Below, piece by piece: positions 2,821 through 62,449 of a DNA stretch of 64,000 nucleotides; position 1 is the first letter of the stretch, and every line of letters starts with the position of its first letter. The translations under genes were made by a program, and so were the position numbers. The notes beneath the pieces were generated by a model. The model was given only the letters and a program-made list of their open reading frames with translations. It searched no databases and had not been told where the DNA came from. Source of the stretch: Bacteroidia bacterium (GTDB taxonomy: Bacteria; Bacteroidota; Bacteroidia; B-17B0; Aurantibacillaceae); contig JBGASH010000001.1 of assembly GCA_044229775.1 (NCBI GenBank), forward strand, positions 10,409 through 74,408. Direction: 5' to 3'.

Positions 2821-3501
2821 TTAAAGGCTAAGCGCGTATTGAAGTCCCAGAATATAATTGTTTTCAGGCGAAGAGAGATAAAACTCGCGTTGGATCAAAT
2901 AGTATACCCCAAAACTGTTTCGATCATTGATCTTATAGTCAAAACCGGCAGCATATCGCACGCGATGGATTTCGCCATTATATTGAGCCTGTTTGCCCCT
3001 GGGCACATCTATTTGATATCGCGCTTCAACCGAAACATAAGGCGTAATTTTTTTATTTAGATCGAGTTTCATCTCAACTTTATAACGCAAAAAGTGCTCG
3101 GGATATTGCCCGCTTTGTGAGATCAAATAATCCCTTACTTCCGTTTGATAACGTAGCCGGTTAGAAAAGATGATCTTCGAGAATTTTTTCTTGTAGGCAA
3201 TATCAAGCATTAGCCTGTGGCGAAAGCTAAAAACATTTTCGGTTTGAAATTTTTGGATGGTACGATAAGTTAGCTCGGCTTTAAATCCTTTCTTGAACTT
3301 ATAACCCATTCCGAAATTAGTATATAACAAATTAAGCCTCGAAAAATTTTCCCTTAGCCGGAGCTCCTGATCAAACGTTAAAAAGAAATTCTTATTGAGA
3401 TTCTTCTGAACCGAAAAAGTATTCCACATTCCGGCATCATTATAGTTCTGCGCAAGCAGCGCAGCAGGCAAAAAATAGAGAATGAAAAAATACCGCTTCA
3501 A
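2821..3501 (-). CDS. DUF2490-like outer-membrane protein
   Basis: Signal peptide, then alternating beta-strand pattern. Paralogous to ORF 7515-8207. Confidence 0.55.
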   Translation of the reverse strand: MKRYFFILYFLPAALLAQNYNDAGMWNTFSVQKNLNKNFFLTFDQELRLRENFSRLNLLYTNFGMGYKFKKGFKAELTYRTIQKFQTENVFSFRHRLMLDIAYKKKFSKIIFSNRLRYQTEVRDYLISQSGQYPEHFLRYKVEMKLDLNKKITPYVSVEARYQIDVPRGKQAQYNGEIHRVRYAAGFDYKINDRNSFGVYYLIQREFYLSSPENNYILGLQYALSL

Positions 3502-14068: not shown

Positions 14069-17000
14069 ATGGAATACAACTTTAGAAAAATAGAAGAAAA
14101 GTGGCAAGCTATCTGGAAGGATAAAAAATCTTTCAAAACAGATAATAATTCAAGCAAACCGAAATATTATGTACTCGACATGTTTCCATATCCTTCGGGT
14201 GCCGGATTGCATGTGGGTCACCCATTAGGTTATATTGCCTCCGATATTATAGCGCGGTATAAACGCCATAAAGGATTTAATGTATTACACCCTATGGGGT
14301 ACGATAGTTTTGGATTACCGGCCGAACAGTATGCTATACAAACAGGACAACATCCTAAAATTACAACCGAACAAAACATTGCCCGTTACCGCGAGCAATT
14401 AGATAAAATTGGATTTTCGTTTGATTGGGATAGAGAAGTAAGAACATCTGACCCGTCGTATTACAAATGGACACAATGGATCTTTATACAATTATTTAAT
14501 TCGTGGTACGATCTTAAAAGCAATAAGGCCGAGAAGATAGAGACCCTAATTGCCGAATTTGAAAAAAGTGGCAATGGTAATATAAACGCACATTGTGAAG
14601 AAGGTACAAAAACATTTTCGGCAGAAGAGTGGAAAAACTATTCTGAAAAAGAAAGATCAGACGCCTTGATGCAATACCGCATTGCTTATTTGGGAGAAGC
14701 GTATGTGAATTGGTGTCCTGCTATGGGAACCGTATTAGCCAATGACGAAGTAAAGGATGGCGTAAGCGAACGCGGTGGTTATCCGGTTGAACGGAAATTA
14801 ATGAAGCAATGGAGCATGCGTATAACGGCCTACGCACAGCGGCTTTTGGATGGTTTGGATAAGATTGACTGGACCGAAAGTTTGAAGGAATCGCAACGCT
14901 ATTGGATAGGAAAAAGCGAGGGAACGAGTTTGAAGTTTAGGGTCCAGGACCTATCCCCGGCCCTTTCCAAAGGAAAGGGAGAAGAGGCAGCCGAAGGCAT
15001 TGACCCGGGTTATTTTACCACCGACGAGTTTACCTATAGGTTGTTACATGATAGAGCAGTGGAAATGAGAAAAAATCCAACCCCGGCAGAATCTGCGTTG
15101 TGGAAATCTTTAAAAGGAAATAAACTGGATGTTCATTTCAGGCAGCAACAAATAATAGGAAAATACATTGTAGATTTTGTTTGTTTGTCAAAAAAACTTG
15201 TGGTTGAGGTGGATGGAGATATACATGATCATCAAAAAGAAGAGGACGAACAAAGAACACGGGAATTGACACTTACGGGTTACAAAGTGATTCGATTCAA
15301 AAACGAAAAGGTATTAAATGAAATTGATGGTGTCCTGAGAGAAATTAGTTCCGAATTAGAAACGCAAAGTAAAGTCCTCCCCAAAGGGGAGGATTTAGGA
15401 GGGGTCATAGAGGTTTTCACAACACGACCCGATACCATCTTTGGCGTATCATTTGTTACTCTTGCTCCGGAGCATGAGTTAGTTGATAAAATTACAACGC
15501 CCGAACAAAAAGCGGCGGTGGATGATTACGTTAACAAATCAAAGAGCAGAAGTGAGCGTGAGCGACAAGCCGACGTGAATAAAGTGAGCGGCGTTTTTAC
15601 AGGTGCTTATGTAGAACACCCTTTTACAAAAAAACAAATTCCTATTTGGGTGGGCGATTATGTGTTGGCAGGTTATGGAACCGGAGCTGTTATGGCCGTA
15701 CCGGCGCACGATGAACGAGATTTTAAATTTGCCACGCATTTTGGTTTAGCAAAACCACAAGTGATTGTTCCGCCAACAGAACATGATCTTGAAAAGGCGT
15801 CGTGGGATGAAAAAGAAGGAAAGTTAATTAACTCCGATTTTTTAAACGGTCTCGAGGTAAAAGCAGCCATAAAAAAAGCCATTGAAGAAATTGAAAAGAA
15901 TAATTTAGGAAAAGGAAAAATAAATTACCGCCTGCGCGACGCGGTTTTTGGCCGTCAGCGTTATTGGGGAGAACCGATCCCTATCTTTTATAAAGATGGA
16001 ATTCCACATGCATTACCCGAAAGCGAATTACCATTGGTGTTACCCGAAGTAGATAAGTATTTACCAACCGAAGACGGCGAACCGCCTTTGGCCCGCGCTA
16101 CCAACTGGAAGTACACCCCTCTCCTTGGGAGAGGGGACGGGGGTGAGGCTTCTTACCCCTACGAATTAACCACCATGCCCGGTTGGGCTGGGAGCTCTTG
16201 GTATTTTTTGCGCTATATGGATGTGCATAACGACAAAACTTTTGCCGATAAAAAATTAATGGACTACTGGAAAAATGTAGACCTATACATTGGTGGCAGC
16301 GAACATGCTACCGGACATTTATTATATGTGCGTTTCTGGACCAAGTTTTTGCACGACTTAAATTATATTTCTATTGACGAACCTGCGCAGAAACTGATCA
16401 ATCAAGGGATGATACAGGGGCTGAGCGAGAAAATAATTAGATTAACGGCAAGGAATCCTAAAATAATTGATGGACATGAAAATTTGGATGAGGCTCTAGC
16501 AAATATTGAAAATAAAAGTGTTTCAATTCCTGAGGGAATTTCAAATGTGTTTATTAGTGCTGACGTAGTAGAAAGTCATAGAAGCCCTTTCTTGTCAACG
16601 GACAAACACGCAAGAGTTGATGATGTTGAGAATGGGGTATTGAATATTAGAAAGCATTTAAAATTTTGGAAAGAAGATAGTGACGCGGCTTTTGTTTGTT
16701 TAGGAGGGTATTGGAGAAATGGAGAATTCCATGGGAATGGCTCAGATCAATTCAAGACAATACAAGAAGTAGAAAAAATGTCTAAATCGAAACACAACGT
16801 TGTTTCACCTGACAATAAATTCGACGAATCTACTGGAGAAATTGTTCCCGGCATAATTGAAAAATTCGGCGCGGATACTTTGCGTTTGTACGAAATGTTT
16901 TTGGGTCCCCTTGAGCAAAGTAAACCCTGGAACACTAATGGTATTACCGGCGTTTCGGGTTTTTTGAAAAAATTGTGGAGACTGTTCTATATGTCCCCCG

Positions 17001-17518
17001 CTGGCGGGGGTGGCGAGACGGGGGTGGACATTACCGTAAGCTCAGCCGAACCGACCAAGCCCGAACTAAAAGCGCTACACAAAACCATTAAAAAAATTAC
17101 CGAAGACATAGAGCGTTTTTCGTTCAACACCTCGGTAAGTAATTTTATGATCTGTGTAAATGAATTAACCGACCTTAAATGTAATAAGAGAGCTATACTT
17201 GAACCGTTATTAATTATTTTATCGCCTTACGCGCCGCACATTACCGAAGAACTGTGGGAGAAACTAGGCCATAAAGAAAGCATAGCTTATGCTGAGTTTC
17301 CTATTTGTAACGAGAGTTATTTGGTAGAGAGTAATTTTAATTATCCTATTTCGTTCAATGGTAAAACCCGTTTCAATATCGAAATGCCCGCAACGTTAAG
17401 CATTCCCGAAATTGAGAAACTGGTAATGGAAGCCGAACAAACACATAAGTATTTAGAAGGTAAGCAACCTAAAAAGGTGATCGTGGTTCCTAAAAAAATT
17501 GTGAATATTGTAGTTTGA
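14069..17518 (+). CDS. leuS: Leucyl-tRNA synthetase carrying several in-frame insertions
   Basis: HIGH motif ([10 protein letters not shown]), editing-domain motif (TTRPDTIFG), KMSKS motif, [11 protein letters not shown]. At 1149 aa it is much longer than typical bacterial LeuRS. Confidence 0.95.
14951..15403 (+). mobile_element. DUF559/Vsr-like nuclease cassette translated in-frame within leuS
   Basis: About 151 extra codons lie between the [13 protein letters not shown] and TTRPDTIFG blocks. The core is homologous to ORF 62012-62449 (KYIVDF.C, V.E.DGDIH, I.RFKNE.VL). It is bounded by hairpins at 14961-14979 and 15376-15392. Boundaries are approximate. Confidence 0.65.
14961..14988 (+). repeat. 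GC-rich hairpin plus purine tail (left boundary of the leuS cassette)
   Basis: ccctttcc-aaa-ggaaaggg followed by agaagaggc. Confidence 0.6.
15376..15404 (+). repeat. GC-rich hairpin plus tail (right boundary of the leuS cassette)
   Basis: cctcccc-aaa-ggggagg followed by atttaggagggg. Confidence 0.6.
16116..16149 (+). repeat. Solo hairpin-tail element translated in-frame in leuS
   Basis: cccctctcc-ttg-ggagagggg followed by acgggggtgaggc. Encodes [12 protein letters not shown]. Nearly identical to the intergenic copy at 38197-38228 (opposite strand). Confidence 0.75.
16995..17028 (+). repeat. Solo hairpin-tail element translated in-frame in leuS
   Basis: cccccgc-tg-gcggggg followed by tggcgagacgggggtgga. 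Encodes [11 protein letters not shown]. Shares the acgggggtg tail with 16137-16145. Confidence 0.6.
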
Positions 17519-36853: not shown

Positions 36854-38194
36854 TTAAGCCATTACTTTTTTATACTTCTTATCATAATGACTTACGTCAT
36901 TGAACTTTTTACTCTTAGCTATTTCCAGAAACTCGTGTTTAAAATGGCGGATAGCCGCGGCTACCGGCCAGGCCGCTGCTTCACCCAATGGACAAATGGT
37001 TTTTCCTTCTATCTTACTTTGTATATCCCAAAGCAATTCAACATCGGCCTCGGTAGCTGTCCCATTTAAAAACTTCTTTAATATTTTCTCCATCCATCCA
37101 GTTCCCTCGCGGCAAGGCGAACATTGTCCGCAACTTTCGTGATGATAGAAACGCGTGAACGTAAATAAATTCTTTACAATGCTAGTATCCTCATCCATTA
37201 CAATGAATCCACCTGAACCTAACATGGTGCCGGTTTGAAATCCGCCATCCGATAAACTTTCGTAAGTCATTAAACGCGGTTCGCCTTTGGCAGTTTTTAA
37301 AATTAATTCGGTAGGTAGAATAGGAACGGAAGAACCACCGGCCACCACTGCTTTTAATTTTTTACCATGACGGATACCGCCGCAATATTCTTCACTATAA
37401 ATAAATTCCTCAACCGGAATTCCTAATTCAATTTCGTATGTACCCGGTTTATTGATGTGTCCCGAAGCAGAGATCAATTTTGTACCGGTTGATTTACCAA
37501 TTCCGATCTTCGCGTATTCTTCGCCACCCATCATTACAATAGGGCAAACTGCCGCTATGGTCTCAACGTTATTAACCACAGTAGGACAACCCCATAATCC
37601 GGCAACAGCAGGGAAGGGTGGTTTGATGCGTGGATTACCGCGCTTACCTTCTAACGATTCTAACAATCCGGTTTCTTCGCCGCAAATATAAGCGCCGCCT
37701 CCCACTTGCACGTAACAATCATGCGAGAAATTAGTTCCTAAAATATTTTTTCCTAACCATCCCGCCGCGTAAGCTTCTTTGATGGCGGTTTCTAAAATGC
37801 GCGCCACATAAAAATATTCGCCACGTATGTAGATGTAAGAGGTTTTTGCGCCGAGTGCATAAGAAGAAGTGATCATTCCTTCAATCAAAGCATGAGGGAT
37901 CACTTCCATTAAATAACGGTCTTTAAATGTGCCCGGCTCCGACTCATCCGCATTACAAACCAAATATCTTGGAACGCCTTCCGGTTTTGCGAGGAAACTC
38001 CATTTTAATCCGGTAGGGAAACCGGCACCACCTCGTCCGCGTAAACCCGATTTTTTTACTTCATCGGTCACCTGATCGGGGGTCATGTTTTTCAATGCTT
38101 TCTCCACCGAAGCGTAACCACCATGTGCGCGGTACACTTCCAGCGTGTGAATGTTTGGAACCTTATCGTTATGTATTAAAAGTTTTTTCCCCAT
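36854..38194 (-). CDS. nuoF: NADH-quinone oxidoreductase subunit F
   Basis: [20 protein letters not shown] site and [12 protein letters not shown] 4Fe-4S motif. I prefer the ATG at 38194. The GTG at 38203 lies inside the hairpin repeat. Confidence 0.92.
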
Positions 38195-38196
38195 TA

Positions 38197-38228
38197 GCCT
38201 CACCCCCCGCCCTCTCCTTTGGAGAGGG
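38197..38228 (-). repeat. Solo hairpin-tail element in the nuoE-nuoF spacer
   Basis: The minus strand reads ccctctcc-aaa-ggagaggg followed by cggggggtgaggct. Same family as 16116-16149. Confidence 0.75.
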
Positions 38229-38243
38229 AGCTGGATTTATTTT

Positions 38244-38825
38244 TCATAATGTGTTTTTATAATCTCTGTCGGTATAACTTCTTAACCGGTTCTCGCTTCT
38301 GTATTTTTCAATGAGAGCGTCCACTTTTTCGAAAGTAAGATTTTCGTGATAACTCGCGCCACACTGTAACATGGGGGCGGTACCGCAAGAACCTAAACAT
38401 TCGGCTGTTTTTAAAGTGAACATACCGTCTTTAGTGGTTTCTCCTACTTTAATATTTAATTTTTTCTCAATGTGTTTTACAATGTCTTCGGCGCCATTTA
38501 ACCAGCACGAGGAAGTTTGACATACTTCGAAAGTACATTTTCCTACGGGCTTTAAATGGAACATGGTATAAAAAGAAGCTACTTCAAAAACCTCTATGGG
38601 TTTTATTTTTAAAACTTCGGCTACGTAATCCATTGTTTCAGGACTTAACCATCCGCCAAATTCGGCCTGCGCAATGTGTAATACAGGAAGCAAAGCAGAT
38701 TTTATTTTTTCAGGAGGATAGTGAGAAATAATTTCTTTCACGTCTGCCATAGCGGCATCGCTGAACTTTAATTCTGTTCTCTTCTTTTTATCAAATGTTT
38801 GTGTTCCGTGTACTTCTGCTCCCAT
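38244..38825 (-). CDS. nuoE: NADH-quinone oxidoreductase subunit E
   Basis: 2Fe-2S thioredoxin-like motifs (CQTSSCWLNG, CLGSCGTAP). Confidence 0.9.
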   Translation of the reverse strand: MGAEVHGTQTFDKKKRTELKFSDAAMADVKEIISHYPPEKIKSALLPVLHIAQAEFGGWLSPETMDYVAEVLKIKPIEVFEVASFYTMFHLKPVGKCTFEVCQTSSCWLNGAEDIVKHIEKKLNIKVGETTKDGMFTLKTAECLGSCGTAPMLQCGASYHENLTFEKVDALIEKYRSENRLRSYTDRDYKNTL

Positions 38826-61931: not shown

Positions 61932-61967
61932 CGCAGGGAAGTTTAATCATAGATGACGCTCTCTATT

Positions 61968-62443
61968 CCCTCTCCCTTGGGAGAGGGTAGGGTGAGGGTT
62001 AGAATTCAATAATGAAAACGAAAAGCTTACATCACTACAGTGCTCCCAAAAGCGCCTTTGAAAACGCTAAAATCCTTAGAAAAAATCAAACTAAAGCGGA
62101 ATGGTTATTTTGGCGGATAGTTTCAGGAAGAAAAATTCTGGGATTTAAATTCCGAAGACAACATCCAATTAGTAAGTATATTGTCGATTTTTATTGTCAG
62201 GAGGTTTTATTAGTGATAGAATTGGATGGGGATATTCACTATATTGAAAGCGTTAAAAGGTATGATAAAAAAAGAGAGGATGATTTGAAAAAACTTGGAC
62301 TAGAGATCATTAGGTTCAAAAATGAGGAGGTGCTTTTTGATACCGATAGAACAATTGAAAAATTAAAAGGAATTTTGAATACCTCGATGAAAGAGGAACC
62401 CTCATCCTCGATCCTTCTCCCATCGGGAGAAGGATGTGATCAC
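61968..62443 (+). mobile_element. Free-standing DUF559 cassette bounded by inverted hairpin-tail repeats
   Basis: Left end is ccctctcc-cttg-ggagaggg plus tagggtgaggg (61968-61998). Right end is ccctcatcc-tcgat plus ccttctccc-atc-gggagaagg (62409-62443), the same module in inverted orientation. Confidence 0.65.
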
Positions 62444-62449
62444 TGTTGA
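62012..62449 (+). CDS. DUF559 / Vsr-like endonuclease-domain protein
   Basis: RKNQTKAEWLFW, KYIVDFYC, VIELDGDIH, IIRFKNEEVL. The last ~15 codons (EEPSSSILLPSGEGCDHC) are encoded by the right terminal repeat. Confidence 0.8.
   Translation: MKTKSLHHYSAPKSAFENAKILRKNQTKAEWLFWRIVSGRKILGFKFRRQHPISKYIVDFYCQEVLLVIELDGDIHYIESVKRYDKKREDDLKKLGLEIIRFKNEEVLFDTDRTIEKLKGILNTSMKEEPSSSILLPSGEGCDHC

Follow-up and report, generated by a model that had tools for sequence, protein, structure and literature searches.

Selfish nuclease genes are not known to survive in essential genes except inside self-splicing introns or inteins. Rickettsia palindromic elements, attributed to Ogata and colleagues in 2000, reportedly lie in frame in protein-coding genes and are tolerated in surface loops. 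Both I-Bth0305I and the homing endonucleases of Vsr-like type from 'fractured genes' belong to the Vsr/DUF559 clade of PD-(D/E)XK enzymes (PMC3424549, PMC3239194, PMC2677866), and in Caulobacter a DUF559 protein encoded by a free-standing gene was shown to cause DNA damage (PMC12907096). The ShiLan domain or 'hidden HNH' insertions in phage methylase genes do not splice, are readable in frame and evolve in a homing-like manner (PMC11855218). Here, we analyse a stretch of 64,000 nucleotides (the window) from a Bacteroidia bacterium (assembly GCA_044229775.1, contig JBGASH010000001.1, positions 10,409 to 74,408 of the forward strand), in which leuS, the gene for leucyl-tRNA synthetase (LeuRS), contains an in-frame cassette that encodes a DUF559 nuclease between two hairpins. 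We consider it probable that this is a selfish, autonomous endonuclease cassette that does not splice, is translated within LeuRS and spreads by homing-type conversion.

The host gene gives every sign of encoding a LeuRS: the TIGR00396 model (NCBIfam leuS_bact) scores 919 bits against its product (cutoff 548), Pfam recognises the tRNA-synt_1, editing (PF13603) and anticodon-binding domains, and HIGH, KMSKS, TTRPDT and another editing-site motif are all intact in the translation. Pfam places the DUF559 domain between the N-terminal part of tRNA-synt_1 and the editing domain. A preliminary description, made from the letters of the window, had proposed that this protein holds about 151 extra codons, in frame and with no stop; the single open reading frame (ORF) bears this out (Table 1), and because only 16 residues separate WIG(K/R)SEG from FTTRPDT in cassette-free relatives (e.g. 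L032), we put the extra segment at about 150 codons. The insert was correctly located at 14951-15403, but its exact ends were not: when the 3′ end is reverse-complemented and set against the 5′ end, the match, together with the junctions of other cassettes of the same type (A1, defined below), gives limits one codon wider on each side, running from GACCTATCC... at the 5′ end to ...GGAGGGGTC at the 3′ end. The cassette occupies the tip of a beta-hairpin loop that follows SLKF and adjoins a highly conserved stretch of leuS. Its junction residues are ...RVQ/DLSP... and ...LGGV/IEVF... (a slash marks the junction). In the ORF list of the window no other ORF of 80 or more residues overlaps the cassette on either strand, and we found no promoter-like site or plus-strand terminator inside the cassette region. 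Because the cassette contains no stop codon and the frame is kept at both junctions, it should be transcribed and translated as part of LeuRS.

The nuclease itself is identified at several levels. In the complete LeuRS, the Pfam DUF559 model (PF04480) matches with E=1.8e-34 (118 bits against a cutoff of 20.6), which agrees with the family assignment made in the preliminary description, and in the segment marked out there, taken alone, it matches with E=6.6e-36. The PDB sequence matches of the core are 3hrl (3e-18) and 3r3p (3e-3). A model of the cassette alone made with AlphaFold2 (AF2) has a predicted local distance difference test score (pLDDT) of 83, and when searched with Foldseek it finds 3hrl, a DUF559 structure, with a template-modelling (TM) score of 0.88 (E 2e-7), and 3r3p_B, the catalytic domain of the homing endonuclease I-Bth0305I, with a TM score of 0.78; Vsr (1vsr/1cw0) follows further down the list at a probability of 0.97. 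The Vsr-like fold that had been suggested is thus recovered in the model. The same search also showed that mitoribosomal proteins of Toxoplasma and Tetrahymena (9i05, 9g6k, 6z1p) resemble the DUF559 fold (probability ~1.0). The full-length AF2 model of LeuRS is poor overall (pLDDT 64, predicted TM score 0.39), and we use it for local confidence alone and draw no geometry from it: the insert hangs between host strands 286-293 and 446-451, and the cassette core is confident (77-88), but the hairpin-encoded segments 294-318 and 435-444 are not.

Conservation of the nuclease is strong. The embedded copy of the window has the residues D, E-x-D-G-x-x-H, D, R and R-F-x-N, and these columns, which include the acidic pattern singled out earlier, are 97-100% conserved across 86 LeuRS-embedded copies, as they are in free-standing ones. 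The ratio of non-synonymous to synonymous divergence (dN/dS), computed in the host frame, is 0.06-0.2 for the cassette and 0.03-0.10 for the host leuS; between the window and its nearest relative, L016, the cassette has a dN/dS of 0.11 at a dS of ~1.8. Judged from its sequence, the nuclease is kept functional by purifying selection, and activity is predicted. The conservation of the frame and the low dN/dS together also suggest that a LeuRS-nuclease fusion is made. Nuclease activity, its target and homing as the mode of spread are inferred as well.

How common is this arrangement? We sampled the 120 closest LeuRS proteins, which are 63-75% identical to that of the window and come mostly from metagenome-assembled genomes named 'Bacteroidia bacterium'. 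Cassettes occur at the loop used in the window (site A) and at a second loop, in front of an invariant LeuRS motif (site B): 62 of the 120 proteins have one at site A only, 20 at site B only and two at both, while the remaining 36 have none. The expectation that relatives would include empty alleles is therefore borne out, and the insertion noticed in the window is real, but is one case of a widespread family found at a second LeuRS loop and in many other proteins. We built a host tree from 854 columns outside the cassettes, and on it the presence of the cassette is extremely patchy. Sister pairs differ by a full cassette against a clean empty loop (P0027/P0101, P0033/P0065, P0004/P0099 and P0087/P0109), and Fitch parsimony requires at least 24 changes at site A (33 when cassette type is counted) and 8 at site B. 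Among 33 cassette-bearing leuS loci from independent genomes, the ORF runs through the cassette in 32. The exception, L008, comes from a long-read assembly and has its ORF broken inside the cassette, by either a sequencing frameshift or true pseudogenisation. In four loci, free-standing DUF559 genes lie within 1-2 kb of leuS (L027 and L063, both 3001-3327; L067, 3001-3324; L028, 7442-7753), and the apparent length of the leuS match is inflated because of them.

The cassettes fall into three lineages, each bound to one site: A1 (the type of the window) and A2 both occupy site A, and B occupies site B. The signature of A1 includes ...SKVLPxGEDLGG, and that of A2 is ...IPNPSPKEKG-HWQTADP...SPSPLERGQGGEA. 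When 242 DUF559 domains are placed in a tree, no foreign sequence falls within the A1 clade (13 members) or the B clade (22), and two join the 50 members of the A2 clade, one being a further LeuRS fragment. Sharing a loop does not make A1 and A2 close relatives: A1 is nearer to cassettes in RecJ, Tgt and SpoIIE proteins than to A2, and the insert of the window is 53% identical to the RecJ insert and ~41% identical to A2. The most direct illustration is the pair P0014 (A1) and P0056 (A2), in which cassettes only ~40% identical sit in almost identical hosts (0-2 differences per 40 residues in most bins, 5 in the bin just after the cassette). To call the insertion 'permanent' overstates the case: in the lineage of the window the cassette is old, as the synonymous divergence given above indicates, but from one lineage to another the site changes hands among cassettes of two types, remnants and alleles that are empty.

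GC-rich hairpins had been proposed as the boundaries of the insert. In the window the stems are perfect at both ends (the 3′ hairpin at 15375-15393, extendable to 15372-96), essentially all copies are hairpin-bounded, and nearly every cassette has a perfect stem of 6-10 bp at each end. The stem sequences vary among cassettes (CCCTTCTCC, CCCCTCTCC, CCCTTTCC, TCCCCC, TCCTCCCC and others) and the complementarity is kept. Each hairpin has one arm made wholly of pyrimidines and one made wholly of purines, and no stop codon can therefore lie within an arm in any frame on either strand; the translated ends give Ser/Pro...Gly/Glu peptides, a property that would suit them to life inside ORFs. The A2 cassettes have terminal inverted repeats of 35-45 nucleotides, GCCTCACCCC-nnn-CCCCTCTCC-aaa-GGAGAGGGG at one end and the complement at the other, and the inversion is proven by the loops, which are aaa in the 5′ repeat and ttt in the 3′ one. 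The A1 ends of the window follow a related pattern, but are weakly inverted repeats. Polypyrimidine/polypurine GC-rich hairpins number 6 in the window, whose GC content is 39%, against 0.06 expected (maximum 1 in 100 shuffles), and four of the six lie inside leuS. Across 81 leuS genes, 107 such hairpins cluster in about six loops; since the hairpins collected had been chosen as perfect stems, support for them comes from the ends of orthologous cassettes and from the shuffle control.

The clearest sign of recent movement comes from two Dokdonia loci, L017 and L028. Their leuS genes are ~85-88% identical (dS 0.76) and their cassettes 96-100% identical (dS 0.048), and the near-identical block starts at the 5′ hairpin and stops at the 3′ hairpin, which points to recent lateral movement of the cassette. 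Other relatives appear to record its loss, and remnants with one or two hairpins are common. Two-hairpin elements from which the nuclease has been deleted are found in L045, P0090 and P0108, a collapsed cassette ('RPLSGSPQGGEG') in P0091, and solo hairpins in L073 and L074 and, as 'SPLLGRGAGGEA', in many relatives; degenerate loops and clean empty loops complete a graded series at both sites A and B. The site A loop also contains unrelated small repeats in frame in L048, L058, L064, L077, L069, L038, L050, L075 and L057, among them 'PFDSAQGD' (CCCTTCGACTCCGCTCAGGGTGAC), a double hairpin 'HPELVSGS...MLKQVQHD' and short tandem repeats. To judge from its contents, this loop is a general sink for repeat insertions.

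Cassettes of this kind are not limited to LeuRS. An exhaustive search of 1.84 billion representative proteins returned 22,745 DUF559 relatives, many of the best 150 embedded in longer proteins; it was more informative than a word-indexed homologue search with the cassette, which gave 18 matches. The hosts recognised by Pfam are LeuRS, RecJ, Tgt, the MetH activation domain, adenine deaminase, CinA, NAD-epimerases and SpoIIE/PP2C phosphatases. The same kind of linker peptides is found at the junctions in these other hosts, and highly conserved motifs usually adjoin. Five proteins of the SpoIIE/PP2C type (P0127, P0135, P0154, P0163 and P0269; four confirmed by Pfam and P0163 assigned by its flanking motifs, which it shares with them) have the cassette at one common position, between SGDFYW and (A/C)DCTGHGVPGAF, an apparent second hot spot in another protein family. 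In the phage and plasmid collections searched there was no sign of carriage of this cassette, the matches being few, distant and mostly free-standing DUF559 genes. Public annotation labels some of these LeuRS just 'DUF559 domain-containing protein'.

The window also contains further copies of the cassette and its ends (Table 1). Only two DUF559 copies are present, the leuS insert and a free-standing gene, and the homology claimed between them is confirmed at 43% identity over 119 residues (E=1e-25). The hairpins of the free-standing copy lie at 61968-87 and 62411-35, the second falling inside the C-terminal codons of the gene. Solo elements occupy two further leuS loops: the site B loop holds a full DUF559 cassette or a solo hairpin in relatives, and the third loop (site C) has solo hairpin inserts in relatives. 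The solo copy on the minus strand lies in a 40-bp gap between ORFs, and overlaps the listed GTG start of ORF 36854-38203.

Table 1. Coordinates of the leuS cassette, its parts and related elements in the window.
Feature	Position	Strand	Context or basis
leuS host gene, 1149 residues, ORF continuous through the cassette	14069-17518	+	ORF list, Pfam, TIGR00396
Whole in-frame cassette, type A1, 459 nucleotides = 153 codons, LeuRS D294-V446	14948-15406	+	Terminal repeats
5′ terminal hairpin CCCTTTCC-aaa-GGAAAGGG, stems 14961-68/14972-79, predicted to be translated as linker	14961-14979	+	
DUF559 / Vsr-like PD-(D/E)XK nuclease core, LeuRS residues 327-430	15047-15358	+	Pfam, PDB sequence matches, AF2/Foldseek
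3′ terminal hairpin (AAG)TCCTCCCC-aaa-GGGGAGGA(TTT), stems 15375-82/15386-93, predicted to be translated as linker	15372-15396	+	
Solo hairpin with GGGGGTGAGG tail, in frame in leuS at site B	16116-16148	+	
Short GC hairpin, in frame in leuS at site C (third loop)	16995-17010	+	
Solo hairpin-plus-tail (GGGGGGTGAGG)	38198-38230	-	Between minus-strand ORFs 36854-38203 and 38244-38825
Hairpin-plus-tail element just upstream of the free-standing DUF559 gene	61966-61999	+	
Free-standing DUF559 gene, 145 residues, own ATG and stop	62012-62449	+	Pfam E=5e-32

Two observations concern other parts of LeuRS. The leucine-specific-domain region (window 16420-16775, LeuRS residues ~785-902, between NQGMIQG and KMSKS) is hypervariable, with wholly unrelated sequences of 110-150 residues in LeuRS that are otherwise ~96% identical (P0014/P0056, P0006/P0055 and P0033/P0065); this looks like module swapping at a further site, in which DUF559 is not involved. 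In P0142 and P0155, LeuRS of another lineage, a DUF559 cassette at site A is accompanied by a NUDIX domain after the editing domain (residues ~520-643).

How would such a cassette live and move? In the reading we prefer, that of a non-splicing cassette spreading by homing-type conversion, the peptides encoded by the hairpins, rich in Pro, Ser, Gly and Glu, would act as flexible linkers, and because of that flexibility the nuclease would fold on its own without disrupting the synthetase. In leuS alleles that lack the cassette, the fusion-borne nuclease would cut at the loop or close to it, and the cassette would be installed there when the break is repaired from a copy that has it. After loss of activity, internal deletion would leave a two-hairpin element, then a single hairpin and finally an ordinary loop. 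Homing is the best-supported mode of spread given the site-bound lineages, the adjacency to conserved motifs, the patchy distribution, the Dokdonia transfer and the kinship with a proven homing endonuclease.

Several of our own results pull the other way. Co-conversion of flanking leuS is not visible in the few pairs available, in which the identity blocks stop sharply at the hairpins, and a transposition-like insertion therefore fits them at least as well as classical homing. A1 and A2, which are unrelated lineages, share one loop in which many small repeats land too, so that the 'site specificity' may in part reflect a tolerant loop and not the specificity of the nuclease. Hardly any full-length cassette has a broken active site, and a classical homing cycle predicts some; copies that become inactive may quickly lose what lies between their hairpins, or loss may be selected against. 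The cassette in the lineage of the window looks old and vertically inherited relative to L016. Finally, the trees are neighbour-joining trees on ~120 columns and are poorly resolved at depth.

Transposition via the hairpin ends is the main rival, because the identity blocks end at the hairpins and because two lineages and unrelated repeats share the loop. Here the cassette would be a small DNA transposon. Its DUF559 nuclease would be a PD-(D/E)XK enzyme with specificity for structure or sequence, comparable in this to TnsA of Tn7, and would recognise and cut the hairpins or inverted repeats at the ends; insertion would be near-random, and the survival of none but stop-free, in-frame copies in tolerant surface loops of essential genes would mimic site specificity. 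The long terminal inverted repeats of A2, the many unrelated hosts and the solo and two-hairpin derivatives, intergenic ones included, are what one would expect of such an element, as are the sharp block ends without co-conversion and the confinement of leuS hairpins to about six discrete loops, with site A, which also collects unrelated repeats, being simply permissive. Yet each cassette lineage is confined to one site, and no target-site duplication was recognised at the junctions examined; in A2 alleles the original loop is mostly missing or replaced, not duplicated. In addition, a single nuclease of ~110 residues has no obvious strand-transfer activity, and the ends of the window's own A1 cassette are only weakly inverted. 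On balance we regard transposition as unlikely.

A second alternative is that the domain was once mobile and is now kept for a benefit to the host, such as Vsr-type DNA repair, nucleic-acid binding or regulation. Strong purifying selection and active-site residues that stay invariant over long divergence, also in the lineage of the window, would follow naturally from domestication, and so would the lack of full-length copies with an inactivated active site; the DNA-damage phenotype of the free-standing DUF559 protein in Caulobacter (PMC12907096) fits as well. But close relatives do well without the cassette or with remnants only, two cassette lineages substitute for each other in nearly identical hosts, the same cassette occurs in unrelated enzymes with one recent lateral copy, and the insertion site has no relation to the active sites of LeuRS beyond being a loop. 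Because of this turnover at the site, domestication is improbable as a general explanation; it is less so for the lineage of the window, in which an old cassette is still subject to selection.

Still less credible is removal of the cassette before the mature enzyme is formed, by an unrecognised intron, an intein-like element or ribosomal bypass, which would leave LeuRS at its normal size. Stable hairpins at both ends might serve such a process, and odd insertions have precedents in the T4 gene 60 bypass and in the ShiLan element, which is neither intron nor intein (PMC11855218). As the preliminary description had stated, intein and intron features are missing: we rejected an intein on the lack of any Hint-family Pfam match or intein domain and on the junction residues, which are wrong (no Cys/Ser/Thr...His-Asn), and a group I or group II intron on the lack of an Rfam match at E<=1 in 14700-15700 and on the kept host frame. 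Every copy keeps the frame at its two junctions, and dN/dS computed in the host frame is low; removal would require neither, which speaks against it and led us to reject ribosomal bypass, for which the 459-nucleotide cassette would moreover be ~9 times the 50-nucleotide gap of T4 gene 60. An assembly chimera, which had been named as a check and might be suspected in DNA that derives, as here, from an assembly of metagenome type, is close to negligible as an explanation, and so is a dead copy of the gene: the same architecture occurs in 33 independent genomes (with a continuous ORF in 32) and in 84 of the 120 protein clusters, the host parts are under strong purifying selection, and the leuS model score is far above its cutoff.

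Returning to the non-splicing homing cassette, the in-frame DUF559 cassette exemplifies a widespread lifestyle of nuclease genes within essential proteins, one that is apparently undescribed. More tentatively, we suggest that it may represent a class of autonomous mobile element that has not been described before and is widespread in Bacteroidota. This would be a nuclease gene that settles in frame in essential proteins, much as an intein does but without splicing, whose hairpins double as DNA recognition or recombination ends and as Pro/Ser/Gly linkers, whose fusion product is the active homing enzyme, and whose decay steadily supplies housekeeping proteins with new loops and linkers. In the literature on DUF559, Vsr-like mobile elements, in-frame palindromic elements and LeuRS insertions, our coverage of which is incomplete, we did not find this arrangement described. 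Next to the intron and the intein it would suggest a third solution, namely to stay in the protein, bring linkers and enter only loops that tolerate an extra domain. If confirmed, this adds a new lifestyle to the catalogue of mobile elements, accounts for many mis-annotations of housekeeping enzymes as 'DUF559 domain-containing', charts by natural example where LeuRS, RecJ, Tgt, MetH and PP2C phosphatases permit insertions, and may provide small, site-specific nucleases able to act as internal fusions. The family also shows that repeat insertion is reshaping essential enzymes in uncultured Bacteroidia, and at a high rate.

It is instructive to compare the cassette with the known systems that it resembles, beginning with the short repeats. 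Like REP (repetitive extragenic palindromic) and BIME (bacterial interspersed mosaic element) repeats, the hairpins are short, GC-rich and scattered in the genome. REPs, however, are extragenic and mobilised by HUH (RAYT) transposases, whereas the cassette hairpins are often intragenic, in frame and associated with DUF559. The solo and two-hairpin derivatives look like Rickettsia palindromic elements or other in-frame MITEs (transposable elements of the miniature inverted-repeat kind). These are non-autonomous and encode nothing, whereas the full cassette encodes a conserved nuclease. Measured against what defines a MITE, terminal inverted repeats are there (clear in A2, weak in the A1 of the window), but the full cassette is neither non-coding nor non-autonomous in this sense, and only its deletion derivatives fit.

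Inteins, too, are in frame, translated with the host, as the cassette is predicted to be, and placed at conserved sites of essential genes, and they often carry a homing endonuclease. The difference is that the cassette has no Hint domain or splice-junction residues, and presumably the mature protein retains the insert. In superfamily and in fold the nuclease is the same as those of the Vsr-like/EDxHD homing endonuclease genes (I-Bth0305I, PMC3239194; 'fractured genes', PMC2677866). The likeness extends to adjacency to conserved motifs in essential genes, a patchy distribution and, in one pair, a cassette more similar than its host. As expected of a homing gene, the cassette is polymorphic for presence and absence at one site with clean empty alleles, and its history is discordant with that of the host. 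Vsr-like homing genes, though, sit in group I introns, in inteins or between the halves of split inteins, and splicing restores the host protein. The leuS cassette has no splicing apparatus, its nuclease would be read through as part of the host protein, and its hairpin or inverted-repeat ends are not a feature of those genes. The nearest precedent in lifestyle is ShiLan, which can be assigned to neither introns nor inteins (PMC11855218). In ShiLan the HNH lies out of frame inside the insertion and the hosts are phages (PMC11855218), whereas the cassette described here has a PD-(D/E)XK nuclease in the host frame, hairpin ends and housekeeping genes of bacteria as its hosts.

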